From contig CAYOQI010000005.1 in NCBI GenBank assembly GCA_964406075.1, forward strand, positions 14,021-78,020: a DNA stretch of 64,000 bases, written 5' to 3'. The position numbers and the translations under genes were made by a program. Of the stretch, positions 2,037 to 37,151 are shown in pieces (the first letter of the stretch is position 1; each line of letters starts with the position of its first letter). Under the pieces are notes generated by a model. The model was not told where the DNA came from. It ran no database searches and saw only the letters and a list, made by a program, of their open reading frames with translations. Origin of the DNA: an uncultured Pseudomonadales bacterium. GTDB lineage: Bacteria; Patescibacteriota; Microgenomatia; UBA1400; PJMF01.

Positions 2037-2038
2037 AT

Positions 2039-4857: not shown

Positions 4858-5907
4858 TTAGAGTACAAACATGAATCCGAGGATTCCAATGATGACTACT
4901 ACTGCACCAGCAGTCAGGATCATCAATGTTGGTGTGCTGTTTCCAGCTTCAGGTAATCCAGTTGGAGTTGGTTTTACTGTTGGAGTAGGAGTGGCATCAC
5001 ATTCTAAGACAGTTACAGGAGGTGAGATACTTGTTTCAAAACAGACTCCGTTCGGATTGATAGTGCTTCGAGCACTTATTCTGGACCGATAGGTACCAGC
5101 GGGTAATTGAGTGACGTACTGACATGTTCCAGAAGCGCAGTTGAATGCACTAGCATCTGTCCAAGTATTATCAATAATGACCTGATTATTTTGATCTAAG
5201 ATGTCAATCTCATACTGATTAGCACCTGCTAAAGCTTGCCATCTCCAAGTTATGGTTGTGGTGGCTACTTCATCAGGAACACATGCTGGTGTTGCCGGAT
5301 CAACTGGTGCGACAGGTGGACAAAATGGTGTACCTGTCGGACTCGGACTTGGTGTGCGTGTCGGACTCGGTGATGGAGATGGAGTTCTGGTCGGGCTAGG
5401 GGTTGGAGTCGGTGTTCTGGTTGGACTTGGAGTCGGACTTGAGCCACCTGTGCCTGGAGTTGGGGTGGGTGTTGATGAAGTAGTAGGTGAAGGTGTAGGA
5501 CTTGGTGTGCGTGTTGGGCTAGGGGTTGGAGTCCTTGTGGATGAAGGTGTAGGAGTTGGAGAAGCAACATTAAAAATAACAGTACATACAGAATTAGTTA
5601 TGGGGTCACCAATAATACAGCCATTAGGAGAACAAATGGCGTCAGAACCCGCACAAGTACTGAGTACGCAGGTAGAGGTTCCATCATTATTATGATCTGC
5701 ACAGATAAAAGGAGATTGGCAACCGGCAGTGGTTACACAAGTTGCACCACACTGAGCTGGCGAGGGAGGTGTTTGGGCTTGTTGTCTCACATCTTGAGAT
5801 CGAGAACTGAGTAGTACAGAAGCAATAATTCCAACTACGAGTAAAAACAGACCAAGTATACCTAAGATAAATGTGGGCTGGTTGGTTAAAGATGTAGTTT
5901 TTTTCAT
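4858..5907 (-). CDS. surface protein P1: N-terminal TM, Cys-rich module, PT linker, FN3-like domain, C-terminal LPEAG + TM anchor
   Basis: Start moved to the [13 protein letters not shown] at 5907, which overlaps the P2 stop as [15 protein letters not shown] follows the TM. The PT-rich tract contains [13 protein letters not shown]. The C-terminus is [11 protein letters not shown] followed by a 22-residue hydrophobic tail. Confidence 0.75.
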
Positions 5908-6827
5908 TGTTGTTCCCAAGGTTGGCAAGATGCTGCATCAGGTCCAGAGCACAGTCTACACTGAGCTCCATGTGGACCACTTTGAGTAATGGTGTATGGC
6001 TGAGATACATTTGATTGAAGTGAGATTGGTTGAAGGGTAATCACACTTCCACCTGGAAGACCAATTCTGAATTCATATCTGTATGTCCCTGCCACATTTC
6101 CACAAGTAAAGGTAACTGGTTGTCCAATTGCAGGGTTGGGTGGAGTCATTTGAAGAGAGATACAAATTGCCAATGGAGTGGCAGTTGGAACTGCACTTGG
6201 AGATGGGCTAGGCGTTCGAGTCGGACTTGGTGTAGGAGTAGCAGTATTAGATGGGGTTGGAGTCGGACTAGGAGTTCTGGTCGGACTCGGCGTTGGAGTA
6301 CTTGTTGATGTACTCGTAGGAGATGGGCTAGGCGTTCGAGTCGGACTTGGTGTAGGAGTAGCAGTATTAGATGGGGTTGGAGTCGGACTAGGAGTTCTGG
6401 TCGGACTCGGCGTTGGTGTAGCGGTATTTGATGGGGTTGGAGTTGGAGAAGAAACATTGAAAATAACCGTACAGAGTGCTGCAGGTGTCGGACTAGGTAA
6501 CCCAGCAATACAATCACAAATAACCGTACTGCCATCCCTTAAAAATTCTTGACAGCTTCCAGATTGTCCTCCGACAGTTTGACAAGAATTTGCCGTTCCA
6601 ACCACATCACCATTACATGAGTTACTTGAAGTAGTACTAGAATTACTTCCTGTACAAGTAACAGCAGGTGGAGTGGTAGGTGCCACCTGAGCTTGTTGTC
6701 TCACATCTTGAGATCGAGAAGATAAATAGGTGGCAGCAACTATTCCAGCAACAACTAATATCAAACCAATAATGGTTAATATTGATTTAGAGGAGACTCC
6801 GACAGTAGGTTTTGTTGCTGATTCCAT
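5904..6827 (-). CDS. surface protein P2: N-terminal TM, Cys-rich module, repeated PT linker, C-terminal CQPWE domain
   Basis: Start moved to [10 protein letters not shown] (ATG 6827), 1 nt after the P3 stop. The TM is followed by [11 protein letters not shown]. The linker repeat is [18 protein letters not shown]. The C-terminal ~90 aa (...[16 protein letters not shown]...GAQCRLCSG...CQPWEQQ) is homologous to the ends of P3 and P5. Confidence 0.75.
6199..6420 (-). repeat. tandem 120-bp coding repeat (2 copies) in the P2 PT linker
   Basis: 6199-6296 is identical to 6319-6416 (98 nt). There is one mismatch at 6297 versus 6417, and the following 3 nt are identical again. Period is 120 bp, or 40 codons. 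Confidence 0.9.
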
Positions 6828-6828
6828 A

Positions 6829-8454
6829 TTAATTTGAGATTTCCCAAGGTTGACATGTACTTGCTGCACTTCCTGTACAAATTCGACACTGTGCCCCGTG
6901 CTGGCCACTTTGATTAATTGTGAAAGGCTGAGAAACTCTTGATTGAGCTGAACTTGGTTGGACTGTGACTAAAGTGTTATTTGGTAAGCCCACTCTGAAT
7001 TCATATCTAAATGCTCCGGCAACGGCACCACAAGTGAGTGTTATTGATTGGTTAATTGTTGGGTTAGGTGGTGTCATAGTTAAAGATACACAGACTGGTC
7101 CAGGAGTAGCCGTGGGGGAAGGGCTTGGAGTAGGTGTTCGAGTTGGAGTCGGGGATGGGGTAGAGGTTTGGGTCGGGTAGACACAGAAGTTGTCATAGGC
7201 GACACCCCAGTTGGCTTTTGTACCTTGAGGGATGACATCAACGTAAGCAATCGGACTACTTCCGATTAAGGTGATTGGATAACTTCTTCCATCAAACTGC
7301 ATATTACCTGAGGCAGCAGCGACAGTCAGTGTGGTCACTAATTGATTACTGGCATTGTAGGCATTAATGATTGACCTTTCTCCATTGTCCACATCAACTA
7401 AGTCAAAGATGAAATCATTGCGTCTAAATCCACTTGCAATACTAATTCTGACCGGACAAGAGAAGCTTTGAAGGTCAGAAGAATCAGTCATGAACGGACT
7501 TTGAGCTCGATCACCAGGATAGGTTAAGTCTGGGAAACCACCAACTCCAGGAGAGGTTTCTTGACCTTGAAAGGCAGTTCGAGGAGCACCAGCTAAAGCA
7601 ATACGAGGACCAGAGGTAGCAGCACAAGCATCACGAGTTTCTTGGGTAGCAGCAAGCTGAGGTTGAAGAGAGAAACTTAAACCAGTCGTTGCTTGATATT
7701 GAGTATTTAACAGTAAGTTATCAGCAGGAGCAGAACCATCATCTAATCGGCTTAAATCGATACGAGATCCGGTACACACGACTGGAGTAGGTGTAGGTAC
7801 ATTGGTAGGAGTATTTGTGGGTGTATTGACCGGAGTATTAACAGGTCCTGGAGTTGGAGTGTTTCCACCAGTCCCAGGTGTTGGTGTAGCTGTAGGTGTG
7901 TTCGTGGGTCGAGGAGTAGGAGTATTTCCTACAGGACAGCACGCAAACCCACCAGTTTCGCTACATTCTTGTTGATTTCCTCGTAAATAATAACCATTTG
8001 AACAATCAAATCCTGGTTCAGCACAAATTCCACCTGTACATAACGGTTCAGTATCCTGAATATCACAAACACATCGACTAGGTTCAGCGTCAAGGACACA
8101 CAATCCATTTTGACCTCCGACACTACATCCACTTCCCTCATTTTGACCTAAACAGACTGACTCAGAACCACTTCCACAAACGACAGTATATACCTGTGCT
8201 TGTTGTCTCAACTCGGTGTTTTTATTTGCAAGAAACATTGCACTTGCTACTCCTACTGCCAACAAGGTGAATACCAATGCCCCAATTAATAAATTGGGTG
8301 ATAAGGAAGGTGTTGATTTCTTTGAACGATTATCAGAATGAGATGAACTTGAATTAGATTTTGATGAAGAAGTAGAAGAACCAAACTTCTTTTCGAGCTC
8401 GTCAAGTATTTCCTCTATAGATTGATTATTAGTAGTTTTGGACGGGTTCGACAT
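6829..8454 (-). CDS. surface protein P3: cytoplasmic N-tail, TM, 14-Cys module, PT linker, ~200-aa unknown core domain, CQPWE domain
   Basis: 541-aa paralog of P5. N-tail motif [22 protein letters not shown], Cys-dense block [20 protein letters not shown]...FACCPVG, then the core [17 protein letters not shown]...NFCVYPTQ. It ends ...RYEFR...AQCRICTG...CQPWEISN. Confidence 0.8.
7175..7764 (-). repeat. 590-bp perfect repeat, copy A (inside P3)
   Basis: By eye, base-for-base identical to 10517-11106 (offset 3342). Both flanks become mismatched within a few nt. Confidence 0.85.
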
Positions 8455-8467
8455 GGTAATCAGTTTT

Positions 8468-10156
8468 TTATAGCAATAAGAGTAGTCCTAAGGCTGCCAA
8501 GACAAGGATAGTGATAGCTGTTGCTACGATGACAAATGTTGAACCTGTTCCACCAGCTGCAGGTAACTGAGGTTGGTTGGTAGGAGCAGGAGTTGATGTT
8601 GCACCAACACAGGTGCTACTTGTGGGATTACTGGCTAAACGACAGACCGTCTTAGAACCTGTATTGAAACAGATATGATTACTATCGGCACAATCTGAGT
8701 TATAGGTACATGTTTGTTCACATTGAGCAAGCACTTTGGTGGAGTTTAATGTGACATCATCTTGATCGTCTTCACCAGTCACGTTATTTCCTGGAGTGGA
8801 ATCTGGATCAGGTAATGTACTAGTCACAACTTCCGCAATGTTGGTGATACTTGCAGCAGAATCAACACGTGCCGTTATGTATAAGTACACAGTTTCGTTG
8901 AGTGATAATGTTCCAATTGTCCAGATGCCGTTAGAAGAGTTGTATGAACCTTTGGTGGCATTTGCTGAGACAAAAGTAAGTGATGAAGGTAACACATCTT
9001 TGACAGTCACATTTTCTGTTGTATTCGGACCCTTATTTGTCACTTGAATAGTAAAGGTGATGTTCTGACCCACCGTAGGTGTAGTTGTACTAACTGTTTT
9101 TTGTAATTCTAAGTCAGCTCGAGGAGTTGGTGAACTCGTTGGTGTAGGTGTCGGAGTATTTCCACCTGTTCCTGGGGTAGGAGTTGGTGAATTTGTTGGT
9201 GTGGCACCTGGAGTTGGTGTGCTCACTGGGGTTGGGGTAGCAGTACTAATAGGTGTACTAGTCGGGATAGGACTTGGTGTTGATGTTGGAATAGGTGTTG
9301 GTGTATTACCACCAGTTCCTGGTGTGGGAGTAGGAGTATTGGTTGGTACAGGAGTAGGAGTCGGTGAATTAGATGGGGTACTGGTTGGATTAGGTGTTGG
9401 AGTAGATGCTGTACAAATACAGTCCGCTTCACTAGAACAACTCACATTTCGACAGAAGAAACCTGCTCCAGTATCAACACAACGCTGGTTCTGAGCATCA
9501 TCACACTCTTTATCTGATTCACAAGCTTCGTTACAGATTTTTTGCCCAGATTCTTCATCGATGGTTAAATCTACACTACATGAATTAGAAACATCACCAC
9601 CCGCTATACTAGCTGAGTTAGTAATAACAGTTCCAACTGGAGTGTTATCAGCAATTCTGACGCGAAAAACAACTCGAGCTTGACCAGAAGAAGCAACTAA
9701 ATCAGAAAGTGCGCAAGTGAGTGTCCTGTTTGATGTGTTATAAGCATTAGGGCCACAATTGGAATCAACAAACGTCACATAATTAAGATTATTGGGTGAA
9801 AGTACATCAGTGAGTGAAATTGTTACGGGGGTGGAACCAGTATTTGTGACATCAATTGCCCATACTATCGTGTCACCAGCTTTGGCTGTCTGAAGAACTC
9901 TTCTTAAATAATATGTACCGGGAACATTATCAAATTCATCTTGGTAGGTCTTTTTAACACAATTCACATCTGGAGGTGTCCCAATTGTAATGTCTAAAGA
10001 ACAAGTTCCTGATTCCACTACTTGAGCTTGCTCTCTGAGATCTTGAGATCGAGAGTTAAGAATAATTGAAGCAATAATACCAACTCCCAATACAAGTAAT
10101 CCAGTTAAACCTAAAAGAAATGCGGGTTGGTTGGTAATGGGCGTGGTTTTTTTCAT
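8468..10156 (-). CDS. surface protein P4: N-terminal TM, two DUF11-like repeat domains, Cys-rich modules, PT linkers, C-terminal LPAAG + TM anchor
   Basis: Start moved to the [13 protein letters not shown] at 10156, 2 nt after the P5 stop. [11 protein letters not shown] follows the TM. The DUF11-type block is LELQKTVS...[17 protein letters not shown]...NVTVKDVLP...[19 protein letters not shown] occurs twice. The C-terminus is [11 protein letters not shown] plus a hydrophobic tail. Confidence 0.75.
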
Positions 10157-10158
10157 TG

Positions 10159-11778
10159 TTATTCCCAAGCTTGGCAAGTGGATTCATCTGTTCCCGTACA
10201 AGGTCGGCATTGAGCTCTATAGTTACCATTTTCAGAATAGGTGAATGGTGCTGAGACACGAGCTCCGGCAGCGCTAGGATTCAAAGCATTCCAGCTACCA
10301 TTTGGAGTGCGCACTCTGAACTCATATCGGGTTGCTCCAGCTACTTCTCCACAGGTGAATGTGACTGAGTCGTTGATCTGAGGTGCTTGAGTGCTTCCAT
10401 TTAAGTTTGTCATTGAAATAGACACACAGAGTCCAGCTTGTGGCGTAGGAGTTGGAGTAGCTGTGGAACCAGGAATGGTTGCTGTTGGTGTAGGACTTGG
10501 GGTAGAGGTTTGAGTTGGGTAGACACAGAAGTTGTCATAGGCGACACCCCAGTTGGCTTTTGTACCTTGAGGGATGACATCAACGTAAGCAATCGGACTA
10601 CTTCCGATTAAGGTGATTGGATAACTTCTTCCATCAAACTGCATATTACCTGAGGCAGCAGCGACAGTCAGTGTGGTCACTAATTGATTACTGGCATTGT
10701 AGGCATTAATGATTGACCTTTCTCCATTGTCCACATCAACTAAGTCAAAGATGAAATCATTGCGTCTAAATCCACTTGCAATACTAATTCTGACCGGACA
10801 AGAGAAGCTTTGAAGGTCAGAAGAATCAGTCATGAACGGACTTTGAGCTCGATCACCAGGATAGGTTAAGTCTGGGAAACCACCAACTCCAGGAGAGGTT
10901 TCTTGACCTTGAAAGGCAGTTCGAGGAGCACCAGCTAAAGCAATACGAGGACCAGAGGTAGCAGCACAAGCATCACGAGTTTCTTGGGTAGCAGCAAGCT
11001 GAGGTTGAAGAGAGAAACTTAAACCAGTCGTTGCTTGATATTGAGTATTTAACAGTAAGTTATCAGCAGGAGCAGAACCATCATCTAATCGGCTTAAATC
11101 GATACGTGAACCGGTACACACCACTGGAGTAGGAGTAGGAACATTGGTCGGTGTATTGACAGGAGTATTCGTTGGCCTTGGAGTTGGAGTGTTTCCTCCA
11201 CCCGTCCCAGGGGTTGGTGTAGCAGTAGCCTGAGCAATAGTTGTAGGAGTAGGGGTTGGTGTGTTTCCACCACCTACAGGACAACATGCAAATCCACCAG
11301 TTTCACTACATTCTTGTTGATTCCCTCGAAGTTGATACCCACTGGAACAATCAAATCCTGGTTCAGCACAAATCCCACCAGTACACAGAGGTTGAGTATC
11401 TTGAATATCACAAGCACAGCGACTGGGTTCAGCGTCAAGGACACACAATCCATCCTGATTTCCTACACTACATCCACTTCCAACATTCTGACCTAAACAG
11501 ACTGAATCCGAACCATTTCCACAAACAATAGGATATACCTGTGCTTGTTGACGTAAGTCTTGATTCTCACGAGCAAGGAACATTGCACTAGCTACTCCCA
11601 CTGCAAGTAAAGTGAACACTAAGGCGCCAATGATGGTATTAGGCGAAAAAGAAGATTTTTTCTTGTTGTGTGAGTTATGGTTTGAGTGAGAAGAAGCGTT
11701 ATCAGAACCAAAGCGTTGTTCTAATTCAGCTAAAATATCGTCTAATGATTTGTTTGCTGGAGATGAGTGGTTTGGCAT
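10159..11778 (-). CDS. surface protein P5: paralog of P3 (N-tail, TM, 14-Cys module, identical core domain, CQAWE domain)
   Basis: 539 aa. N-tail [22 protein letters not shown], then the same Cys spacing as P3. The core domain is identical to P3. It ends ...RYEFR...AQCRPCTG...CQAWE. Confidence 0.8.
10517..11106 (-). repeat. 590-bp perfect repeat, copy B (inside P5)
   Basis: Identical to 7175-7764. Confidence 0.85.
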
Positions 11779-11827
11779 GATGTTGTGTATGAACGTTATT
11801 AAAATCTGAAAAAATACTCGTGCATTA

Positions 11828-11857
11828 AGAATACTCAGTCTTGTATCCTCGCGTCAA
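11828..11857 (-). promoter_or_regulatory. candidate sigma70-type promoter for the surface-protein operon
   Basis: The minus strand reads TTGACG - 18 nt - TATTCT, about 50 nt upstream of the P5 ATG. Found by eye only. Confidence 0.3.
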
Positions 11858-11956
11858 TAGGTGAGTGAGGGAAAATATGAGAGATTTAAAGAAGTTGTAA
11901 GAATATGCTTCATATTTAAAAATGTTGCTTATCTTAAAACAAGCTGAAATGGTAAG

Positions 11957-12790
11957 ATGCAAACCTCATCTATGATGAAAACAATTTCGCACTCTTTTTT
12001 AAAAAAACAGTATTGGGATTTCCTTTTTGCCATGACGGAAAAAGAAATCAAAGCCAGATATAAATTCGCAATTCTTGGGTTTCTCTGGGTTATTTTGAAC
12101 CCTCTACTTCAGATGCTGGTGATCGGTTTCATTTTCCAATTCTTCGTTCCGGTCAAAGTTGACAACTATTTTTTATTCCTTTTTGCTGGTTTACTACCGT
12201 GGAATTTTTTCTCCATGACGGTTCAGAAAGCTACTCCTTCTATCGTTTTTGAGCGAGGACTGATTCAAAAAGCAAAATTTCCTCGAGAGGCAATCGTATT
12301 GTCAATAGTTTTATCAAATTTGTTTCATTTTTTAATTGCACTCAGTTTACTGATACTGGCATTAGTGATAGATAAAATTGTTTTTGATCATTATGGAATA
12401 AGTCAATCCATTTCTTATATATTCCGAATGTTATGGCTTTTGCCTTTACTTTTCTCTTTGACTTTACTGACTTCGGGATTCTCACTTATTTGTTCAGCAC
12501 TCAATGTGAAGTATCGTGATGTGAACTTTATTACTCAAGCCATTTTGCCTTTATGGTTCTATGCTACTCCCCTCGTGTACACACTCACTCTTCTTCCTGA
12601 ACGATTTCGAATTTTCTATTTGCTCAATCCCATGGCTGGAATCATTGAACTTTTTCATCTAGTTTTATTAAACTTACCACTCACTTCAGTATATTTAGCT
12701 GTAGTAAGTTTGGCTATGAGCATAGTAACTTTTTTGATTGGGTGGATACTTTTCCAAAAAGAAAGTAAATTTTTTGATGACTGGATTTAG
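11957..12790 (+). CDS. wzm: ABC-2 type polysaccharide/teichoic-acid exporter permease (Wzm/TagG-like)
   Basis: 277-aa multi-TM protein. The N-terminal block KEIKARYKFAILGFLWVILNPLLQMLV is characteristic of the ABC-2 permease family, and the gene is followed by its cognate ATPase. Confidence 0.8.
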   Translation: MQTSSMMKTISHSFLKKQYWDFLFAMTEKEIKARYKFAILGFLWVILNPLLQMLVIGFIFQFFVPVKVDNYFLFLFAGLLPWNFFSMTVQKATPSIVFERGLIQKAKFPREAIVLSIVLSNLFHFLIALSLLILALVIDKIVFDHYGISQSISYIFRMLWLLPLLFSLTLLTSGFSLICSALNVKYRDVNFITQAILPLWFYATPLVYTLTLLPERFRIFYLLNPMAGIIELFHLVLLNLPLTSVYLAVVSLAMSIVTFLIGWILFQKESKFFDDWI

Positions 12791-12837
12791 GTCAGTTATC
12801 GGAGATCAGTTGTCACTTAACAGAAAATTTCAACATT

Positions 12838-13557
12838 ATGAAAAAGAAAAAAGAAATTGCTATTGAGCTAAAAAATGTCTCGAAGCATTACATCTTGCAT
12901 CATGAGAAGCCGACGTTTAGTGAACGATTAGTGCATCGAACGAAAAAGGAAGTCTTTACAGCCTTGGATGATATTTCTTTAACGATTTATAAAGGAGAGA
13001 AGGTAGGGATTATTGGTCGTAATGGAGCAGGGAAAACGACATTATTGAAAATAATTGCAGGTATTACCACCTCTAATTCAGGCAGTCTAAAAACCAATGG
13101 GAAAATCGTCTCTTTAATTGATTTAGAGGCAGGTTTTCATCCAGATTTATCTGGAGAGGAAAATATTTTTTTGAACGGAATGGTGATTGGAATGACGAAA
13201 AAAGAAATTAAACAAAAATTTCAAAAAATTGTAGCATTTGCTGATATTGGTCAATTTATTGATGCACCTTTATATACATACTCAGCTGGAATGAAATTAC
13301 GGTTAGGGTTTTCAATAGCTGTTCATGCAGATCCAGACATTCTGATTTTAGATGAAGGTATTACAGCAGGTGATCAAGATTTTCAGGAAAAATCCATGAA
13401 AAAAATAAATGAATTTTTTAAAGCAGGCAAAACAATATTAGTTGTAACTCATTGGATAGAGTTTTTGGAAAAGAATGTGGAAAGAATAATTTGGGTTGAT
13501 GAGCATAGGGTCAAAAAAGATGGAAATATAAAAATTATACGATCCTATCTTCAATGA
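12838..13557 (+). CDS. wzt: ABC polysaccharide exporter ATP-binding protein (Wzt/TagH-like)
   Basis: Walker A GRNGAGKTTLLK, signature YSAGMKLRLGF, Walker B ILILDE. Confidence 0.85.
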   Translation: MKKKKEIAIELKNVSKHYILHHEKPTFSERLVHRTKKEVFTALDDISLTIYKGEKVGIIGRNGAGKTTLLKIIAGITTSNSGSLKTNGKIVSLIDLEAGFHPDLSGEENIFLNGMVIGMTKKEIKQKFQKIVAFADIGQFIDAPLYTYSAGMKLRLGFSIAVHADPDILILDEGITAGDQDFQEKSMKKINEFFKAGKTILVVTHWIEFLEKNVERIIWVDEHRVKKDGNIKIIRSYLQ

Positions 13558-22210: not shown

Positions 22211-22216
22211 TTCTTT

Positions 22217-26658: not shown

Positions 26659-28204
26659 AAATCCTGATCTTAAGAATCTTACTTTGATAGGATTTTTTCT
26701 TCTGTGTAGTTATTTATTGCTATATTGGCAGGATCCTCCTTTAATGTTAGTTTTTCTTTTTGGTAGCTTTTTTATATATTTATTTTCACAACTTTTATAT
26801 TGGATTTTAAATATCTCCTCATGGCGTGAAATAAGTATTATTTTCTTATCTCAATTGTTTATTGTTGCACTCGTTTTCCCAAGGATAAATTCTTTGGAAT
26901 TATGGGGTGACGAGATTGGTGTTATTGAATTATCTGAGTCTCCATTCGAGACAATCAGTCATTTGGTAGCAATTTCACATGCATCTGTTCCACCTTTTGA
27001 TTATTGGATCATGCATTTGTGGGGGGGGATTGTTGGACGATTTGATGTATATTATCAAGAATTTTTATATAGAATTCCTTATCTTTTTTATCACATTCTC
27101 GCAACGATTTTTTTCTTTTTAATTTTGAAACATGAATCTTTATATTTAAAACTCAAAGAGTCTCTAACTATCAAAAAAATCATTTTGATAACCACTTCTC
27201 TAGGATATTTTGTCCATCCTCTTTTATTTCTCTATGCTGTTGAAGTTCGATTCTATTCATTGGCAATTTTAGGTGTAGTTGTTACTTTATATTTATTTTT
27301 AACAAAACGCTTGCAAACAACTTCAGCCATTATTATTTCTGGAATATTTTGTCTAAATTCAATCTTTCAATTCATTATTATTTTTCCGCTGCTAGTTGTT
27401 AGTTTAATTGAAAAGAAATTTCGTAAACAAGCTTTTTTTGCTTTGATTTTTCACCTGATTTTATTAAAAATTATTTGGCCTAGATTAAACATGTACCTGC
27501 CAATTTCAGGAAATGAATCGATTGCTTTAATTCAAAGTTCTTTTAGTAACTTTGTTGCGAATCTGTTTGTAAGTTCATTACAGTTAACGATTTTCAGTAT
27601 CGTGGTAGCAGTATATATATTTAAAATTAAACGGAAAAAACACCAATTTTTAATTAGTTTAACAGGGGTTTGTTTGTTTGTTATTGCATTCTCCTCATAC
27701 CACAAGGGATATTTTGATTTCCATCTCAGACATTTTATCTTCACTTTGCCAATTATTTTATTTTTATTATTATCTTTTCCATTGCGTATTTCACATCGTT
27801 TTCCCAGAATATTAATCTTGGGTTTTATGGTTGTATTTACAGTACCGTGGTTTATTAGCACTTGGTATTCTTTAGGTGGTCAGAATTCTTTTTCAAAAAG
27901 TTTAGTTGGAGCGAAACAAATTGTGAGCAAGGCAAAAAGAGAAAATAAGACTTTAATGGTTTTTCCCATTAGTAAAATACATGATTCTTATCTCGAAGGT
28001 GTGTACAGCTTTAATGCAAGAACACTGTTTTGGTATGCAAAAAGATACAAAATTGAGATTAGCAATGAAAAATTAAGTAGTATTTCTTGTGAAGAGATTA
28101 CGAGTTCAATAATTGTTGTGCGTTTTTGGGATGCAATAGATTGTCTTGAAAAGGAACAAATTGAAAAAGAAGTAATTTTTGATTCAAATGTTTATACTTT
28201 GTAG
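26636..28204 (+). CDS. GT-C fold membrane glycosyltransferase, tandem paralog
   Basis: 522 aa and polytopic, with LELWGDEIGV in the first loop and the same architecture as the previous gene. It contains a G8 homopolymer at 27021-27028. Confidence 0.6.
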   Translation: MHFQKMIENPDLKNLTLIGFFLLCSYLLLYWQDPPLMLVFLFGSFFIYLFSQLLYWILNISSWREISIIFLSQLFIVALVFPRINSLELWGDEIGVIELSESPFETISHLVAISHASVPPFDYWIMHLWGGIVGRFDVYYQEFLYRIPYLFYHILATIFFFLILKHESLYLKLKESLTIKKIILITTSLGYFVHPLLFLYAVEVRFYSLAILGVVVTLYLFLTKRLQTTSAIIISGIFCLNSIFQFIIIFPLLVVSLIEKKFRKQAFFALIFHLILLKIIWPRLNMYLPISGNESIALIQSSFSNFVANLFVSSLQLTIFSIVVAVYIFKIKRKKHQFLISLTGVCLFVIAFSSYHKGYFDFHLRHFIFTLPIILFLLLSFPLRISHRFPRILILGFMVVFTVPWFISTWYSLGGQNSFSKSLVGAKQIVSKAKRENKTLMVFPISKIHDSYLEGVYSFNARTLFWYAKRYKIEISNEKLSSISCEEITSSIIVVRFWDAIDCLEKEQIEKEVIFDSNVYTL

Positions 28205-28252
28205 AGAAAAAAAAGTTTTAACCTTAAGTTAAATAAGGAAAGTCCTATTAGT

Positions 28253-28885
28253 ATGGAATCTTCACTACTTGTGCATGATATTTTTATTTCGATTTCTGAA
28301 CATCAGGCCAAAAAAATTGGAATATTGTTAAATACTCATACACCAATGAATATTCTCCAAATTGGTTGTGGAAATGGAGATTCGACTTACTGGATTGAAA
28401 AATTGTACACGCATACGCATAAACACACCGTAGTTGATCATGAGGAAAAATTTATTCAATCTACCAAACAGCTTATTAAAAAACACAAATTATTATTGCC
28501 ACAGTTTATTCATTCATCTTCTCAAATATTTTTAGCAAGCAGACCTAGAAAAAATTACTATGATTTCTGTTTATTAGATGGTGATGAAAGGTTTGATGGT
28601 TGTTTGACTGATTGGTTTTATTTAAAAGATTTGATTAATAAAGAGGGGATAGTTGTAATGAGAAATATTTGGAACCCTTCTGTACGAAAAGTGATTTCAT
28701 TTATATTAAAAAATTATCCATTTGTACTAACTGAAACTAGCTCTATAGATAATATTTTTCTTAAAATTCCTTGGCTTCATGATTTCTGGTTAGAGAGATT
28801 AGGAAGAAAAAAATGGCTAGATTTATGTGTGCTTAAGAAAATTGATGAAGATAAAAGGAACTGGAATCATTATGTTAGGTTTTAA
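28253..28885 (+). CDS. class I SAM-dependent methyltransferase
   Basis: ILQIGCGNGDST (motif I, GxGxG) and CLLDGDE (motif II-like). Confidence 0.6.
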   Translation: MESSLLVHDIFISISEHQAKKIGILLNTHTPMNILQIGCGNGDSTYWIEKLYTHTHKHTVVDHEEKFIQSTKQLIKKHKLLLPQFIHSSSQIFLASRPRKNYYDFCLLDGDERFDGCLTDWFYLKDLINKEGIVVMRNIWNPSVRKVISFILKNYPFVLTETSSIDNIFLKIPWLHDFWLERLGRKKWLDLCVLKKIDEDKRNWNHYVRF

Positions 28886-28894
28886 GAAATTATT

Positions 28895-29812
28895 ATGAAA
28901 ATAATATTGATTGGCTATGGTTATTGGGGAAAAAAAATTTTCCAAACACTTCATAAAATAACTGAAGAAGAAATTATTGTTTTTGATAAAATTGTTACGC
29001 CTGAAGCTGAGGTAGAAATCCATAAAATTGAAGAATTTGATGGTTTCTTAAATACTTTAGAAAAAGGCAAAGGATTTTTTTTCATTGCCACCCCTGAGCA
29101 TACGCATTATGCGTTGGCAAAAAAAATATTACTTTGTGGTCAAAATGTTTTTGTAGAGAAACCGTTGTGTTTAAAACACCATCAAGCACTTGAACTGGTT
29201 AAAATTGCAAAAAATAATTCATGTTGCGTATTTGTAGATCGAATATTTCTTTATGACGAAGTGTATCAACTTATTAAGTCTACAGTAATGTTAGGAGCGA
29301 TAGGCTCGATTACTAACGTTAGTTCAATTCGTCATAGTAATAATATTTACAAGCCAAATTTATCTGTAATCGAAGATTTAGTTCCTCATGATATTTATCT
29401 CCTTAAAGATTTAATGAATGTATACCCGATTAAAACTGATGTTGAGATTATAAAAAAAGAAGGAAATCAGTTAATCGAAGTGAACTTAAGCTGGGAAGTA
29501 AAAGGATGTATTTGGCAGAATTGGTATAGTTGGAACACTCACGAGACGGAGAGAACTCTTCAAATTACTGGAACTTATGGAAGTATTCTTTGGAAAAAAG
29601 GTGAAAATGGTGATGAGTTACTTTTAACAAAGGGCATCGAAGAAAAAAAACATGTCTTTCAAAAAAAGGCTTCATCTCTCGAATTGATTATTAAGGATTT
29701 TTTTCAGACCAACTCGGAAGAGAATTTAGCTATCAGAGACACTCGATATGAGTCATATATTCATGAAATAGCTGTGCTAGAATCCATTCGTGTACAAAGT
29801 TCCACTCTTTAA
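28895..29812 (+). CDS. Gfo/Idh/MocA-family NAD(P)-dependent sugar oxidoreductase
   Basis: MKIILIGYGYWGKK Rossmann start and ATPEHTHYALAKKILLCGQNVFVEKPL, the signature EKP motif. Confidence 0.75.
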   Translation: MKIILIGYGYWGKKIFQTLHKITEEEIIVFDKIVTPEAEVEIHKIEEFDGFLNTLEKGKGFFFIATPEHTHYALAKKILLCGQNVFVEKPLCLKHHQALELVKIAKNNSCCVFVDRIFLYDEVYQLIKSTVMLGAIGSITNVSSIRHSNNIYKPNLSVIEDLVPHDIYLLKDLMNVYPIKTDVEIIKKEGNQLIEVNLSWEVKGCIWQNWYSWNTHETERTLQITGTYGSILWKKGENGDELLLTKGIEEKKHVFQKKASSLELIIKDFFQTNSEENLAIRDTRYESYIHEIAVLESIRVQSSTL

Positions 29813-30926
29813 TTTAACTAGCCAACACGCTCCATTAAAATCAGAAATTCTTCAAGAAGTATCAGATATTATTGATCAGACATCCTTCACCCATGGTCAA
29901 CAAACAACAGATTTTGAAAAATCTTTTGCCATGCTCTGTGCAACGAAATATGCGCTAGGAATGCGATCGGGTACAGCATCTTTATTCGTTGCTTTAAGTA
30001 CTTTACAACTTCAGCCCGAAGATGAAGTAATTACGACTCCGGCTACTTTTTCAGCAACTGCCGATGCAATCAAATTTGCAGGAGGGAAACCTGTTTTTGT
30101 CGACGTTCAACCTTTAACTGGAAATATTAATCCGAAAGAACTAGAAAAAAATATTACTCCTCGGACAAAAGCGGTGGTGATTGTTCACTTATATGGAGTT
30201 CCTTGTGATATGGATGAAATTATTAAGATTTGTAAAAAACACAAACTAGTTTTGATTGAAGATGCTTCACATGCACATGGAAGTTTATATAAAGGTGAAC
30301 CTGTTGGAAGTTTCGGTCGCTTTGGTTGTTTCTCCTTATACCCTTCTAAGACATTAGGAGCGATTGGAAATGCGGGAATTATTACCACAAATTCGTTGCA
30401 AGCGTATAAGTTAATTAACTTATACGCAAATCATGGGGTGAAATCTCCTGAAACAAAGTATAGACATCATGTAAGCGGCTACAATGAGTTAATTGATAAT
30501 ATTCAATCAGCCGTTTTACTTTTAAAGTTAAAAAAATTAAAAAAATGGATTAAGAGAAAACGGAATATTGCTGAGTATTACAATCAATTTTTTCAAAAAT
30601 ATGAACATGCTGGCATGGTTTGGCCTGAGTATGTTGAACCATCCTTATATGTTTATGCAATTCAAATCAAAGATAGGATCAGGTTTCAGGAACATTTTCA
30701 TAAAAAAAATATTCAAACTGGAATCTATTACCCAATCCCGCTTCACCTACAACCGTCAATGGAAAAACTTGGCTATAGTAAAGGTGATTTTCCTCTGGCT
30801 GAGCAATTTTTTGACCGTACAATATCTCTGCCACTGTATCCAGAATTAAGTGACAGCCAAGTCGAATATGTTGGACAGTCAATTACTTCTTTTTTTACCT
30901 CAAGTTTTGCTATCATTAAGAGATGA
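29790..30926 (+). CDS. DegT/DnrJ/EryC1/StrS-family sugar aminotransferase (PLP-dependent)
   Basis: GTASLFVAL ... IEDASHAHGS ... FSLYPSKTLGAIGNAG, containing the PLP lysine. GTG start. Confidence 0.85.
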   Translation: MYKVPLFNLTSQHAPLKSEILQEVSDIIDQTSFTHGQQTTDFEKSFAMLCATKYALGMRSGTASLFVALSTLQLQPEDEVITTPATFSATADAIKFAGGKPVFVDVQPLTGNINPKELEKNITPRTKAVVIVHLYGVPCDMDEIIKICKKHKLVLIEDASHAHGSLYKGEPVGSFGRFGCFSLYPSKTLGAIGNAGIITTNSLQAYKLINLYANHGVKSPETKYRHHVSGYNELIDNIQSAVLLLKLKKLKKWIKRKRNIAEYYNQFFQKYEHAGMVWPEYVEPSLYVYAIQIKDRIRFQEHFHKKNIQTGIYYPIPLHLQPSMEKLGYSKGDFPLAEQFFDRTISLPLYPELSDSQVEYVGQSITSFFTSSFAIIKR

Positions 30927-32971
30927 GTGGATCTCAACAATTTAGCTTTATCATTTTTTTAGTACTCCTGCTTCTCACACTCATTTTAGGAGAATCATTT
31001 CTACGATTTATCATATTGGGTACATGGTCAATTTACTTTTTGACTCATTGGAAGATCCTTCAATTTAATGCCATTATTCAACATAAATGGGTAGCATTCA
31101 GTTGGTTAGTTTATTTATTAGGTTTATTGACCTCTTCACTTTTTACCCACAGTATTCCATTCACTCTTGATTTTGTATTTTTCTCATTAACAGGGTTTAT
31201 AGTTTTTTGGTTTTTTGTTTTACTTCCAAAAGATTATTTTTCTCAAAAACTTTTTTCAGCGGGATTATTGGTTCTTGGTGTAATCATGACCTTCATTGGG
31301 ACCTATTTCTATTTTTCGCCAGGTTTAGCAGTAAATTTACCAGGAATGAACTTATTTTACTCAACATATGGACACAATCATTTGTCAGCATTTTTACTAT
31401 TACTTTTCCCACTCTCAATATCAAAGTTAGTTGAACAAACAGATCGAAAAAGAAAAACAATTTATGGATTTATCGTTCTTTTATTTGGACTAGGAATGAT
31501 ATTTAGTTTTGGTCGAATAGCTTTGTTGTTATCTGCACTTGAAGTATTGGTATTGCTCTTTTTTTACCGATCTCAAAAACAAAAAATTCAGTCCCGATTA
31601 ATAGTAAGCGGTTTTTTTGCCACTATTCTTATAGTCGCAGTTATATATGTTTTGTTTTCCTTTTTACCTGTCATTCATTCAAATTTTTCCTGTTCCGGAA
31701 TTTTGATACAAATACGGTTATGTAAAAACATTCAGGAGGAAGCGAGACCTTTATATTGGTTACAGGCTTTTTATGCTTTTCGTGAGTACTTTTGGGAAGG
31801 GTATGGTCCCGGAACATTCTCTTTAATTTCTCAGAAATATCAACAGTCTCCAGGAATATATACAGGGTATGCGCATAATGCTTTTTTTCAGCACTTTGCA
31901 GAAACTGGCTTAGTAGGTGGGATGAGTTTTCTGTTCTTAATTGCAGTTTTGTTGTATAAAAGTACACTGAGTTTTTTTAATAACAGAAAAAAAGATGTTG
32001 CGATTTTAATCGCTTTGTTGGTATCAGCTCTTAATGCTGGAGTTGATTTTGATTGGAGCTTTTCTGGTATTTTCTTGTTAACACTTATTTTTGGTGCTTC
32101 TTTACTGAGAAATGTCAGAGTCGAAGAAGTTACAAATTATGCTTCATCATTTGTCGTGAGAACCTTTCAAGTTTTGTTTCTTATGATTAGTACATTTTGT
32201 ATAAGTATCATGATTGTCAGTGCAATCACGGAGATACTCTTTATAAGAAAAGACTATGATCCTGTGATTCGTTTTTTTCCTTATATATCTTCTCAACGTC
32301 TGTTTTTATTTACTCCTGAACGAAGTGATTCCCAGAAAGATAAAATAATTAGAATCTACTTTTATCATTCCGATATGCAATTTCAGTTTGAAGAATATAT
32401 TCTTCAAAGAAAAATGTTGAGTAAAGAACAGTTAGCAAGTCAACAATTTATCATGAACCCTTGGAATAGAATATTTAATGAACTGAGTTCGATTGAACAT
32501 TTAAAAGTTGTTGATCTCAATGAATCAGAGCAATACTCGATATATATAAGGTTTTTAATAGATGCGAAACAAAAATATGGATATGAACTGTCACATGAGC
32601 AAATGAAAAAAATATTAGAGCAGTTCTTGCTCATAGCAGATGCAAAAGCGAACAAAGGTTCAATAGAAATAGCGGGTAATGATTATCTTTTAGCCTATCA
32701 ATTACACCCATGGATTATTAATGATCACAAACCTTTCTTTACTTCTCAACAATTAACTGCTGATCAAATTTCTTTACTAATTCCATTATTATCACAAATA
32801 AAATCAGATGACTTCGGTCAATATTCCGATGAATATGCAAGAATATATCTTCAGTTTGTTCTTGAAAAAGGAAGTGAATTATCTGAGGATGATCGACAAA
32901 TACTTCTTCAGCGTATTTTAGCGATTGCACCATGGAAGGAAGATGAGGTGAAAAACATTACTTTTGAATAA
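30923..32971 (+). CDS. O-antigen ligase/polymerase-like membrane protein (Wzy_C) with ~270-aa soluble C-terminal extension
   Basis: SFGRIALLLSALE and GYAHNAFFQHFAETGLVGGMSFLFL are Wzy_C motifs. The C-terminal third is helical and unrecognised. Confidence 0.65.
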   Translation: MSGSQQFSFIIFLVLLLLTLILGESFLRFIILGTWSIYFLTHWKILQFNAIIQHKWVAFSWLVYLLGLLTSSLFTHSIPFTLDFVFFSLTGFIVFWFFVLLPKDYFSQKLFSAGLLVLGVIMTFIGTYFYFSPGLAVNLPGMNLFYSTYGHNHLSAFLLLLFPLSISKLVEQTDRKRKTIYGFIVLLFGLGMIFSFGRIALLLSALEVLVLLFFYRSQKQKIQSRLIVSGFFATILIVAVIYVLFSFLPVIHSNFSCSGILIQIRLCKNIQEEARPLYWLQAFYAFREYFWEGYGPGTFSLISQKYQQSPGIYTGYAHNAFFQHFAETGLVGGMSFLFLIAVLLYKSTLSFFNNRKKDVAILIALLVSALNAGVDFDWSFSGIFLLTLIFGASLLRNVRVEEVTNYASSFVVRTFQVLFLMISTFCISIMIVSAITEILFIRKDYDPVIRFFPYISSQRLFLFTPERSDSQKDKIIRIYFYHSDMQFQFEEYILQRKMLSKEQLASQQFIMNPWNRIFNELSSIEHLKVVDLNESEQYSIYIRFLIDAKQKYGYELSHEQMKKILEQFLLIADAKANKGSIEIAGNDYLLAYQLHPWIINDHKPFFTSQQLTADQISLLIPLLSQIKSDDFGQYSDEYARIYLQFVLEKGSELSEDDRQILLQRILAIAPWKEDEVKNITFE

Positions 32972-32974
32972 AGT

Positions 32975-33616
32975 TTATTTTTTCAATTTGGTCAAGAAAT
33001 ACAGTAAAGGTATTTCAAGTGCTCTTAAAAGTATCCGAACATCTTTTTTAACCGAGCTAAATTTTAATGTTTCAGTTTCCAATTCTTCCCAAAGTTCTTT
33101 GGATGAGTGTCTAGATTTTGATAAAGCCCATAACGATAGAATACCTGGTCGTACAGTGTGTCTAATTTGCCAATGAGTCGGCAAATTTGAGGCTTCTTCT
33201 ACAGGTAAAGGGCGTGGTCCAATCAAACTCATTTCTCCTTTTAAAATATTAATCAGCTGAGGGATTTCATCCATACCTGTTTTTGATAAAAATTTTCCGA
33301 TACCGATAAAACGTGGATCATCAGAAATTTTAAAGGTTGGAAAAGGTGACTCATTCTTTTTGATCAATTTTTTTTGATCTTGGTGAGCTCCTTTGTACAT
33401 AGTTCTAAATTTGATCATTTTAAATGGTTTGTTATTTTTTCCGGTCCGTAGTTGTGTAAAGAATATTGGCCAACCACTGGTGAGCAGAATAGAAACAGAA
33501 ATGATTATCAAGAAAGGTATGAGTAGTATGAAGCCTACCGTTGAGAGCGTTAAATCAAAGATTCTCTTCTGTTTTGAAAAATAATATGAAGAAATAAAAT
33601 CGTGAGACGTATTCAT
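32975..33616 (-). CDS. initiating polyprenyl-phosphate sugar-phosphate transferase (small monotopic PglC/WbaP C-terminal type)
   Basis: KRIFDL ... re-entrant helix ... PIFFTQLRTGKNNKPFKMIKFRTM ... DEIPQLINILKGEMSLIGPRP, the bacterial sugar transferase family signature. Confidence 0.85.
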   Translation of the reverse strand: MNTSHDFISSYYFSKQKRIFDLTLSTVGFILLIPFLIIISVSILLTSGWPIFFTQLRTGKNNKPFKMIKFRTMYKGAHQDQKKLIKKNESPFPTFKISDDPRFIGIGKFLSKTGMDEIPQLINILKGEMSLIGPRPLPVEEASNLPTHWQIRHTVRPGILSLWALSKSRHSSKELWEELETETLKFSSVKKDVRILLRALEIPLLYFLTKLKK

Positions 33617-33641
33617 GATTAATCAAATTTGACCGAGGTTT

Positions 33642-34772
33642 TTAGTGACTTTTACCCGTGGTAACTAAGTACACTCCACTGAGTGTGAAGAAAAGACCTC
33701 CCAGTAATAGTAAAAGCGTTGTCTCAGAAGAGCCAGATACTGGCTGTTCTTGAGTCTGGGCAGGTTGTGAGACAGATTGTGCGGTAGGTACGGGGGATGG
33801 AGTGGAAGTTGCAGTTCCACCTGTACTCACACTGGTTGGAGTAGGTGTTCCTGTGGGAGTTGGTGTAGCCGTATTTGCCACATTGGGTGTTGCAGTAGCT
33901 AAAGATGTTGGTGTGGGCGTAGGAGAATTTCCACCAGCTCCTGGCGTTGGTGATGGAGTTGATGTGGCGACAGTTGTTGGTATAGGCGTAGGAGTATTAT
34001 TACCAGGAACTACGGTAGGAGTTGGGGCAGGTGTGTTAGTAGCCCCAGATCCAGAAGAAAATGTGTAGATTTGAGGTTCACCGGGAGTTCGTAAAACATC
34101 ACTTTTGGTTTGATTCTGAAGGATCTTAGATAAAGTAGGATTAAATGTAAGTGTCATACTTCCAGATTCAGGAACAGTGAATTGGAGTGTTCCGACGACT
34201 AAATCAGTGTTGTTGGCACTATACACACTTGGTGGTGTTGTAATGTACGCAACTGATAATTTTTTCCCCGTAGCGGTATCGATAAGTGAAGTAGTTACAG
34301 GATTTAGACCAGGGATCGTGGCTTGTGTGAAAGAAAGATTGGTGGGAATCGTACCAGAAATATCAGCTATATATTGGATCCCATCAATATTAATTTGTTC
34401 AACACCCATATTTATTTTCAAGATGAGAGTTTGTTCACTTCCTGGTGAAAAAGATGTTGATTCAGGAGAAATCGTAAGAACCGCAGTTCCTGTGGGACTT
34501 GAAGCTTGTTGGCGAATTTCTTGACTGGTTTGACTCAGATAAAAACCAACTCCGCCTCCGATGGTAACAATCATCAACAGTAGTCCACCTAAAATAAGTT
34601 TTATAGGAACTTTTTTGGGTTTGTTTATAGGAACAGGAGTAGCAGCGGTTGCCGGTTTTTGCAGAATTGGTGATTCTTGAATTGCTGAAGCAACTTTTGC
34701 TGATCCATTTGAATTAAAAGTTGATTGAGGGAAAATGCCAGCTGGTGGAGGATTAGGATAAGGAGATTGCAT
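33642..34772 (-). CDS. PT-rich anchored surface protein (N-terminal TM, beta-sandwich cohesin-like region, PT linker, C-terminal QPVSG + TM)
   Basis: The TM is followed by SQEIRQQAS. The hinge is SPTPGAGGNSPTPTP. The C-terminus is QPVSGSSETT plus a hydrophobic helix plus TTGKSH. The cohesin-like call is a tentative impression only. Confidence 0.65.
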   Translation of the reverse strand: MQSPYPNPPPAGIFPQSTFNSNGSAKVASAIQESPILQKPATAATPVPINKPKKVPIKLILGGLLLMIVTIGGGVGFYLSQTSQEIRQQASSPTGTAVLTISPESTSFSPGSEQTLILKINMGVEQINIDGIQYIADISGTIPTNLSFTQATIPGLNPVTTSLIDTATGKKLSVAYITTPPSVYSANNTDLVVGTLQFTVPESGSMTLTFNPTLSKILQNQTKSDVLRTPGEPQIYTFSSGSGATNTPAPTPTVVPGNNTPTPIPTTVATSTPSPTPGAGGNSPTPTPTSLATATPNVANTATPTPTGTPTPTSVSTGGTATSTPSPVPTAQSVSQPAQTQEQPVSGSSETTLLLLLGGLFFTLSGVYLVTTGKSH

Positions 34773-34791
34773 ATTTATAGTAGATTCAAAT

Positions 34792-35928: not shown

Positions 35929-36017
35929 GAGGCAGCAACTAATCGCTATTTTAAATATGTAATACTCACTGTAGAGAATACTTCAGAGAAGCACAAGGTG
36001 AAAAAAAGGCGAATTAC

Positions 36018-36041
36018 TTGAGATAACGTTTCTTATCTCAA
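36018..36041 (-). terminator. intra-operon hairpin (possible attenuator/terminator)
   Basis: TTGAGATAA-6 nt-TTATCTCAA, a 9-bp AT-rich stem, lies 9 nt after the stop of the 129-aa gene. On the minus strand a T7 run follows about 10 nt later. This is weaker than a classic terminator. Confidence 0.3.
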
Positions 36042-36049
36042 ACACTTTT

Positions 36050-37140: not shown

Positions 37141-37151
37141 GTGTTCGGTTT

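Follow-up and report, generated by a model that had tools for sequence, protein, structure and literature searches.

Motif-bearing proteins of the window

The subject of this work is a short motif, [DE][ILV]R[QE]QA, found in six surface proteins encoded in a 64-kb stretch of the contig CAYOQI010000005.1, hereafter called the window. In all six proteins, designated P1 to P6, the motif sits 10–11 residues past the N-terminal hydrophobic helix. The genes of P1–P5 form an operon, and that of P6 is located 22 kb from it, across a low-GC glycan-synthesis island (Table 1). Judging from sequence comparisons, we interpret the motif, with moderate confidence, as the extended helical c-region of a long, sequence-conserved and cleavable Sec leader which would be cut after the motif alanine and which is carried by a subset of surface proteins in the Microgenomatia group of the candidate phyla radiation (CPR). 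The six instances had been reported in an earlier note on this DNA, and translation confirmed their positions, the peptides as read and the hydrophobic helix in front of each; the note had called this transmembrane (TM) helix the only one, which is not the case for P1, P4 and P6, as they also have a C-terminal hydrophobic anchor.

The chance estimate was based on six-frame translation of the window and on shuffles of its DNA. The six-frame translation contains R[QE]QA at six places, which are the six motif sites, compared with a mean of 0.47 occurrences in the shuffled DNA, where the longer form [DE][ILV]R[QE]QA has a mean of 0.005, and a chance origin of the six motifs is excluded. The motif DNA of P1 and P2, which encodes one and the same peptide and was described earlier as an identical string of ~27 nt, is identical at 25 of 27 positions (5773-5799 compared with 6687-6713), the exact run of ~30 nt lying slightly upstream. 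As the codons for Arg, Gln and Ala differ synonymously in the other four motif copies, selection acts on the peptide and not on the DNA.

The leader regions of P1 and P4 share 73% DNA identity over 227 nt; P3 and P5, with 84–98% DNA identity over long stretches (98% over at least 300 nt), are paralogues; P2, P3 and P5 have a C-terminal Cys domain in common; and P6 stands apart, with a different helix sequence. Because of these relationships the six copies are not independent and represent about three leader lineages. The ectodomains had been called otherwise unrelated, a description which holds across related genomes but is too strong for the five operon proteins. The motif said to be shared by the cytoplasmic tails of the paralogues P3 and P5 is indeed present (8380-8454 and 11700-11778). 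Look-alikes of it, namely TLDELLQEI, VDALLDGIL and SLDEILTSLE, were seen in the tails of motif proteins from other genomes (L049:4209-4763, L049:4978-5970 and L052:9395-10255), and this tail motif may be a second, cytoplasmic recognition element and more than a mark of paralogy.

Table 1 Coordinates of the motif genes, their leaders and associated features in the window
Feature	Position	Strand	Description
P1 gene	4858-5907	minus	Motif protein
P2 gene	5904-6827	minus	Motif protein
P3 gene	6829-8454	minus	Motif protein
P4 gene	8468-10156	minus	Motif protein
P5 gene	10159-11778	minus	Motif protein
P6 gene	33642-34772	minus	Motif protein
P1 leader	5776-5907	minus	Residues 1-44, ATG at 5907; short n-region, hydrophobic helix, motif; core 5776-5796
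P2 leader	6690-6827	minus	Residues 1-46, ATG at 6827; motif core 6690-6710
P3 leader	8197-8454	minus	Residues 1-86: 55-residue cytoplasmic tail with tail motif, helix, motif; core 8197-8217
P4 leader	10025-10156	minus	Residues 1-44, ATG at 10156; motif core 10025-10045; paralogue of P1 leader
P5 leader	11542-11778	minus	Residues 1-79 with tail motif; motif core 11542-11562; paralogue of P3 leader
P6 leader	34503-34772	minus	Residues 1-90: 55-residue cytoplasmic tail, predicted helix 57-90 ending at Ala90; core 34503-34523 (QTSQEIRQQAS)
P6 predicted mature part	33744-34502	minus	Cohesin-fold domain (residues 98-238), then Pro/Thr-rich linker; PF00963 on distant homologues
P6 C-terminal sorting-like signal	33645-33743	minus	PVSGSS, hydrophobic helix, GKSH; in the P6 family PVSG precedes the anchor more often than any other motif
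P1 C-terminal LPXTG-like signal	4861-4956	minus	LPEAG and hydrophobic helix; relatives have LPx[TS]G
P4 C-terminal LPXTG-like signal	8471-8566	minus	LPAAG and hydrophobic helix

Conservation and architecture of the leader

The strict peptide led to 25 confirmed loci in public metagenomes, and the pattern [SN]QD[IVL]RQQAS had 56 matches in 185,579 species genomes, 27 of which were confirmed; the number of matches expected by chance is ~25, as estimated from average residue frequencies. According to the record titles, from which all taxon labels were taken, the confirmed genomes belong to Pacebacteria, Paceibacterota, Woesebacteria or Patescibacteria, with some titled "uncultured Pseudomonadales". 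The leader module heads about 70 different proteins in 52 Pacebacteria/Woesebacteria/Patescibacteria loci, and its conservation goes beyond local paralogy. The flavour of the motif differs by lineage: RQQA is characteristic of Pacebacteria-type genomes, and R[SQ][RK]A or RE/KKA are found elsewhere, with the looser forms RKKA, REKA and RSRA present in other CPR lineages. P6 homologues with 26–69% identity retain variants such as QELRKKAA, QDFREKAA, QEIRSRAT and QDIREKAA, and in a locus from another lineage (L054) five different proteins carry YLVRQQQEIRSRAT, YIQQQQQRTRSKAS, YIAQQQQELRQRAS or YVAQQQQNLQQRAD. The 24 pattern matches in viral contigs yielded no confirmed instance, and a short-profile search with the six leaders gave nothing at E ≤ 10 in a 5.8-billion-protein index, where a 50-residue profile cannot reach significance.

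With the relaxed pattern x[DE][ILVFMT]RxxA, 45 of the 85 six-frame matches in the loci L026-L052 and the window follow a hydrophobic helix, compared with one of the 53 matches to the reversed pattern; an earlier run of the same helix test gave 43/55 and 0/11, respectively. The motif is thus not equally frequent in cytoplasmic proteins, a possibility raised in the earlier note, but is a genuine element, specific to the segment after the helix, selectively maintained and confined to exported proteins.

It also marks only some of these. Among proteins with a single N-terminal hydrophobic segment, compared within loci that had been fetched through the motif and hence give biased frequencies, carriers differ from non-carriers in composition (median 4.9 against 0.39 Cys per 100 residues; 20% against 12% Pro+Thr), and the exported proteins with this leader form a subset rich in Cys and in Pro/Thr, to which many putative sortase substrates belong. 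Motif-free exported proteins are present in the window, where the DUF5667 protein (55071-55604) has an ordinary leader ending in ..VSA↓AT (the arrow marks the predicted cut site), and in L054, where a subtilisin adjoining motif proteins has a plain AxA leader. The 70 unique carriers recovered include proteins ending with LPx[TS]G-PEDWL and a helix, proteins ending, like P2, P3 and P5, with the AQCRxC...WE Cys domain, dockerin-bearing proteins and two proteins of more than 3,300 residues.

The anatomy of the leader was derived from 69 unique Pacebacteria-type leaders aligned on the motif Ala, which is numbered −1; for long tails the first ATG in the open reading frame (ORF) was taken as the start codon. 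A cluster of Lys and Arg is found at about −38 to −33 (e.g., K in 34 and R in nine of the 69 leaders at −33), so that a positive n-region before the hydrophobic core is present. The hydrophobic run spans −32 to −12, with Gly at −19 in 67/69, Leu at −12 in 68/69, aromatic residues at −14 and −13, and a residue at −15 which is always small or Val (G31, A26, T5, S5, V2). It is followed by a polar segment with S/T at −11, S/N at −8, Q at −7 (66/69), D at −6 (66/69) and I/L/V at −5, and then by the core, with R at −4 (69/69), Q at −3 (67/69), Q at −2 (69/69), A at −1 (69/69) and S at +1 (52/69). Past +1, which is S, A or Q, conservation stops. The uncharged hydrophobic run has a median of 20 residues, and the spacer between the helix end and the Ala has 10–11. 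The leaders have a median length of 43 residues and reach 106 in the P6 family and ~230 in the loci, with cytoplasmic tails from 8 to ~230 residues, many of them Pro-rich.

In several respects these features depart from the usual signal types. The helix is longer and the Ala more distant than in a classical leader, with its h-region of about 7–15 residues and c-region of 3–7; the Lys-rich n-regions have no RR motif and match no twin-arginine (Tat) model of Pfam or NCBIfam; and the type IV prepilin sequence G↓F-x-x-x-E is absent, with no match to IV_pilin_GFxxxE. The earlier note had set aside both a lipobox and the AxA rule of signal peptidase I. The first exclusion stands, as there is no Cys at or near the helix end in the six leaders, and the second stands in part: the −1 position is small as that rule demands (Ala in 69/69 of the strict set and in many degenerate relatives), and it is the −3 residue, which is not small, aliphatic and uncharged, together with the spacer and the helix length, that is abnormal. 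Neither the six window proteins (E ≤ 0.1) nor ten relatives (E ≤ 1) matched any of the curated leader models (YSIRK, KxYKxGKxW, SipW-cognate, Tat, prepilin), the motif segment is not represented by a model in Pfam or NCBIfam, and a profile search of the PDB returned generic transmembrane helices only. No description was found in the literature, searched also with the literal motif peptides; a Pam-pilus preprint on CPR pilins mentions generic SignalP leaders only. The suggestion that no known signal class explains the motif agrees with these results.

Several minor observations concern the ends of the carriers. In 25 of the 70 motif proteins the sequence starts with M-I-N-[AV]-[VA] or similar, continues with a Pro-rich low-complexity tail of 40–200 residues and reaches PKKK (L005, L009, L012, L020, L025, L026, L031-L034, L036, L048, L050 and others); if the leader is thrown away after export, one would not expect the very start of its long cytoplasmic tail to be conserved. 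At the other end, LP.[TSA]G is located near the C-terminus of 19 of the 70 carriers. The relative L048:9788-10606 scores 17.2 bits with TIGR01167 (LPXTG_anchor), for which the cut-off is 15.9, and window proteins P1 and P4 have no basic tail and match no LPXTG model. Relatives such as L028:9650-12052 and L048:9788-10606 have a very conserved ending, LPx[TS]G-PEDWL..[KQ].GL..LG.G..LLLL, and both P6 and P7, which is encoded next to it and has its C-terminal signal at 34795-34908, have P[VI]SG[SN] followed by a hydrophobic helix. From their sequences, the C-terminal motifs of P1, P4, P6 and P7 look like variant sortase signals. The recurrent Cys domain, ..G.[HY].AQCR.C.G.....C.[PA]WE, has no Pfam match and closes 14 of the 70 motif proteins; in the window it is found in P2 (5904-6100), P3 (6829-7030) and P5 (10159-10360). 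The gene that encodes it usually adjoins that of an LPXTG-type partner. A third conserved leader type, with a helix ending in GV[LF]IAQ[KR]Q, then ...VAPNAP.S.P.A, and with no R-x-x-A, is found on LPXTG-type proteins of the same operons (L028:7480-9561, L033:3845-6142, L036:3136-3996, L042:8194-9357, L048:11630-12385 and L050:11566-12618).

The motif alanine as a candidate cleavage site

The position at which the motif ends was examined in the family of P6. With P6 residues 50-241 as the query, an exhaustive HMMER (phmmer) search (E ≤ 0.001) gave 274 relatives among 1.84 billion cluster representatives; 161 of them, representatives at 50% identity or less, were aligned to the P6 mature region, and 152 were alignable. 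R-x-x-A is present in 113 of the 152, in 100 of which the Ala is located exactly one residue before the equivalent of P6 Ser91. The broad consensus of the 113 includes G at −19, a small residue at −15 (73%), L/A at −12, Q at −7 (83%), D/E at −6 (97%), a hydrophobic residue or T/N at −5, R at −4, Q/N/R/K at −3, K/Q/R at −2, A at −1 and A/S at +1, with the −3 residue distributed as Q62, N13, R13, K10, E5 and S4. The D/E at −6 and K/R at −2 (63/113) could form an i to i+4 salt bridge, and L−12, the hydrophobic −5 and A−1 would share one face, a pattern consistent with a deliberately stable helix.

The relatives P0117, P0119, P0128, P0133 and P0138 have short canonical signal peptides, the predicted cut of which falls at the aligned column of the motif Ala: ..PIVLA↓ATENGTA, ..HIVEA↓ATPSGTV, ..SPAYA↓ASSTGTA, ..NITQA↓ASGTGTA and ..QLVYA↓ATSSGTV. 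In P0140 the sequence ..IFLA↓STSANA lies at the same aligned position, the cut site being less certain as the −3 residue is not small. P0128, with its classical leader, is encoded in the same operon (L058) as two motif-type proteins. Since the Ala aligns with the predicted cut site of these homologues, the simplest reading is that it is the P1 residue, in protease notation, of a leader-peptide cleavage site and that the motif is an extended c-region.

The AlphaFold2 model of P6, made with a 15-sequence alignment, has a mean predicted local distance difference test (pLDDT) score of 69, and of more than 90 in the domain. It predicts a single helix from residue 57 to Ala90, a hinge with pLDDT below 50 at residues 89-92 and a cohesin-fold sandwich from residue 98, and this predicted boundary agrees with a cut after Ala90. 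The top Foldseek matches of the ectodomain are all cohesin modules (E from 2e-6, probability 1.00), PF00963 is precomputed on the distant homologues, and in the model the ectodomain is predicted to be a cohesin beta-sandwich. In the family as a whole, C-terminal hydrophobic anchors were seen only together with motif-type leaders (30/113, compared with 0/9 among classical-leader members, numbers too small for a firm link), and seven of the nine classical-leader members carry dockerins.

The course of events that we favour would then be as follows. The Lys/Arg cluster would fix the N-in orientation and the helix would insert through Sec/YidC, with the polar segment prolonging it by about three turns above the membrane, so that the long helix would transiently hold the precursor in a membrane-tethered form. 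A type I (S26-type) signal peptidase, either the housekeeping one or a paralogue, would cut after the invariant Ala, and the freed ectodomain would be linked to the wall by sortase through its LPXTG-like signal or held by cohesin-dockerin or Cys-domain contacts. More speculatively, the stable helix and the non-canonical −3 residue might slow or gate the cut, tethering these Cys-rich and probably glycosylated proteins during folding and sorting. Cleavage is also favoured by the presence of LPx[TS]G and a helix on many carriers, as wall-sorted proteins need release from an N-terminal anchor.

Several points weigh against cleavage of this kind. Type I signal peptidases such as LepB and SipS take up their substrate as an extended strand, preferably with a small or aliphatic residue at −3. 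Here that position is occupied by Q, N, R, K or E, which E. coli LepB and the Bacillus Sip enzymes disfavour, and the helix predicted through the motif is the opposite of an extended strand. The hydrophobic segment is of TM length (~20 residues) with the Ala 10–11 residues beyond it, the conserved cytoplasmic tails of up to ~230 residues suggest a role of the leader beyond targeting, the coincidence of the Ala with classical cut sites was seen in a single protein family, and no S26 gene was found near any motif gene in 771 kb of fetched loci. As the polar −3 residue and the helical site clash with the preference of type I signal peptidases, the enzyme would have to be unusual or a paralogue, or cleavage slow or gated.

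The alternative that survives best, though we consider it doubtful, is an uncleaved type II signal anchor, with the helix staying in the membrane and the juxtamembrane helix serving as a stalk or docking element for a common partner or for a fixed ectodomain height. It would account for the length of the hydrophobic segment and the non-canonical −3 residue, for the unbroken helix that AlphaFold2 predicts through the motif, for long cytoplasmic tails with conserved motifs of their own, and for the lack of any other anchor in P2, P3 and P5; in addition, G−19 and the small −15 residue make up a GxxxG-like pair typical of helix-helix packing. An anchor does not explain why the Ala falls exactly on the predicted cut sites when classical-leader homologues are aligned or why conservation ends sharply at +1. 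Carriers with LPXTG-type signals or dockerins would moreover be tethered at both ends or unable to dock, and, as homologues function with ordinary cleavable leaders, the domain can do without the segment.

A dedicated N-terminal sorting signal, mirroring the tripartite signals of sortases and exosortases and cut, or transferred, after the Ala by a specialised non-S26 membrane peptidase or transpeptidase, seems unlikely. Conservation does far exceed the needs of a signal-peptidase site (positions P7, P6, P5 and P4 in protease notation are fixed, and R−4 is invariant in the strict set), only a compositionally distinct subset of exported proteins is marked, the flavour differs by lineage, and the invariant helix Gly points to recognition inside the membrane. 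Against this reading, no gene of a candidate enzyme was found linked to the motif genes; their conserved neighbours are housekeeping genes or encode a MacAB-like transporter, which the window lacks; Ala at P1 followed by Ser or Ala at P1′ is just what an S26 enzyme uses, and the subset statistics are biased by the selection of loci through the motif. In its most extended form, an N-terminal counterpart of sortase and exosortase signals which is read by a CPR-specific membrane peptidase or transpeptidase and routes Cys-rich glycosylated surface proteins, including partners of PilN/PilO in a type IV pilus operon, this idea is likewise one to which we give little credence. The dedicated processing, sorting or tethering signal proposed in the earlier note thus stands as a maintained signal on a subset of exported proteins, with a cut at RQQA favoured, and no gene of a dedicated enzyme was found linked to it in the 771 kb.

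In those fetched loci, regular expressions and phmmer revealed nothing convincing beside the motif genes among S26 signal peptidases, sortases, rhomboids, prepilin peptidases and SppA, with the limit that the phmmer scan has low sensitivity, having missed a Pfam-annotated sortase in L053; that sortase gene is the sole peptidase or sortase gene linked to motif genes in the 771 kb. In the window, no signal peptidase or sortase was found among the ORFs scanned with Pfam (those outside ~16.5-30.9 kb) or by six-frame regular expressions, and no SecA2 or SecY2 genes were seen. Rhomboid cleavage was set aside, as the topology is wrong and the P4 position of the site (−4) is Arg, the rhomboid recognition motif having a large hydrophobic residue there.

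An earlier cut by signal peptidase I, just past the small −15 residue (G-x-[GAV]-[AV]-[GA]↓[FLY][YFW]L), is improbable. The 14-residue peptide [FY][YFW]L[ST]Q..QD[ILV]RQQA would then stay on the protein as a tether or tag, perhaps as a propeptide removed later. The −15 residue, small or Val in every one of the 69 leaders, the −17 residue, which fits the −3 role, and G−19, standing where a helix breaker is expected, are in line with such a site, but the equivalent positions in L054, P-L-T-[VI]-Y, make a poor one, a small −15 residue occurs in only 73% of the broad family, and the peptide is entirely missing from the classical-leader homologues, which begin at +1. Finally, that the motif has no function of its own and is shared through recent duplication or gene conversion within one operon family, as the paralogous P1/P4 and P3/P5 leaders and the nearly identical P1/P2 motif DNA might suggest, is hardly credible with P6 lying so far off with another helix sequence and other codons, and is already contradicted by conservation across genomes, the motif being kept on ~70 proteins in 52 loci and on 113 representatives of at most 50% identity while the flanks diverge.

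Related systems and genomic surroundings

In function, the leader class described here can be grouped with other Sec leaders specialised for surface proteins (YSIRK, accessory-Sec, ESPR and the SipW/LepB2 substrates), from which it differs in that its conserved element comes after the hydrophobic core, includes the presumed cut site and fixes R−4, D/E−6 and Q−7. We know of no signal peptidase that requires R−4, D/E−6 or Q−7. The YSIRK-G/S motif is found in the Sec leaders of a subset of staphylococcal and streptococcal LPXTG surface proteins, at the cytoplasmic boundary of the n- and h-regions, with an ordinary AxA cut. Both leaders mark only some of the surface proteins, with many known or putative sortase substrates among these, are longer than usual and coexist with ordinary leaders in the same cell, but the conserved part of the motif leader follows the helix and includes the presumed cut site, and there is neither sequence similarity nor an NCBIfam match. 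Substrate-specific type I signal peptidases are represented by SipW, acting on TasA and TapA (leader class TIGR04088), and by Actinomyces LepB2, acting on fimbrial and LPXTG proteins; they resemble the present case in the distinct leader class, in the idea of a paralogous S26 peptidase and in the link to surface-fibre or (here putative) sortase substrates, whereas the motif genes have no adjacent peptidase gene and the SipW-cognate model does not match.

That a helical segment outside the membrane can gate cleavage by signal peptidase has a precedent in RsiV of Bacillus subtilis, a type II membrane protein in which signal peptidase site 1 lies several residues outside the TM helix and the adjacent helix blocks the cut until a trigger; RsiV is one regulatory protein, and its site is of the AxA type, while the motif leader forms a class on dozens of surface proteins. 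In the accessory-Sec (KxYKxGKxW; serine-rich glycoproteins) and extended signal peptide region (ESPR; autotransporters) leaders the conserved part precedes the hydrophobic core, whose glycines matter for routing. They share with the motif leader a great length with conserved elements and an association with large repetitive, often glycosylated adhesins, and they differ in that its conserved part lies after the core and matches none of their models. The C-terminal LPXTG/sortase and PEP-CTERM/exosortase signals likewise have a signature motif outside, a TM helix and a basic cluster inside, occur on surface proteins only and have lineage flavours; in the motif leader this order is reversed and placed at the opposite end of the protein, and several carriers bear an LPXTG-like signal in addition.

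The CPR/Patescibacteria form a very large radiation, most of it uncultured. As its members live attached to other cells, surface proteins hold a key place in their biology, and most of these are unannotated. The leader class offers a way to pick, from sequence only, a coherent part of the CPR surface proteome, including cohesin and dockerin proteins, putative sortase substrates and giant adhesins, in which predictors trained on cultured bacteria may misplace the cut site or predict an anchor in the membrane. An Arg fixed at −4, a polar residue at −3 and a helical spacer of 11 residues would imply an unusual signal-peptidase groove or a separate processing enzyme and, if the cut is gated, a general mechanism by which organisms with minimal genomes time the release of their surface proteins.

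The window is chromosomal and CPR-like, encoding LepA, SmpB, GroEL, YidC, NrdR, two class A penicillin-binding proteins, MurJ, PilN and PilO. Records of metagenome-assembled genomes titled "uncultured Pseudomonadales bacterium" (L026, L030, L037, L040, L041, L045-L047, L049 and L052) have the CPR leader and a gene order in common with both the window and the Pacebacteria records, and because of this shared synteny their titles are evidently a wrong label. A 777-residue VirD4/TraD-like coupling ATPase with an N-terminal helix (1437-4372) and an adjacent unannotated protein of ~200 residues are kept beside the motif operon region in 13 loci (L006, L028, L033, L042 and L050 among them). There is also a wider conserved block, rpsA-pgk-operon-macA/ABC/macB, the MacAB-like part of which is absent from the window. 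The whole arrangement, rpsA-pgk-[motif operon]-macA-ABC-macB-...-VirD4-like, was rejected as evidence for a linked machine, as it includes housekeeping genes, is kept in close relatives only and has no MacAB block in the window. The gene of an Rce1-like CPBP intramembrane protease, the sole membrane protease among the Pfam-scanned ORFs of the window and without a link to the motif, is located directly upstream of that of the DUF5667 secreted protein (54340-55604).

The glycan island between the operon and P6 (11957-33616; 26–35% GC) encodes, in the annotated part outside ~16.5-30.9 kb, an ABC-2 transporter pair, several GT2/GT4 glycosyltransferases, a 682-residue Wzy_C/O-antigen-ligase-like protein and a Bac_transf sugar transferase, and its products could glycosylate the Pro/Thr-rich linkers of the motif proteins. 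P6 is the last gene of a pilN-pilO-small membrane protein-P7-P6 operon downstream of murJ (33642-37709), which is kept in two relatives (L056:7086-11143 and L057:7012-11227) with P6 homologues 47–48% identical. P7 resembles fibronectin type III and purple-acid-phosphatase N-terminal domains and has a conserved leader of its own ending in GPG[IV]F[SA]PRA↓T, and both P6 and P7 may be envelope components linked to the type IV pilus.

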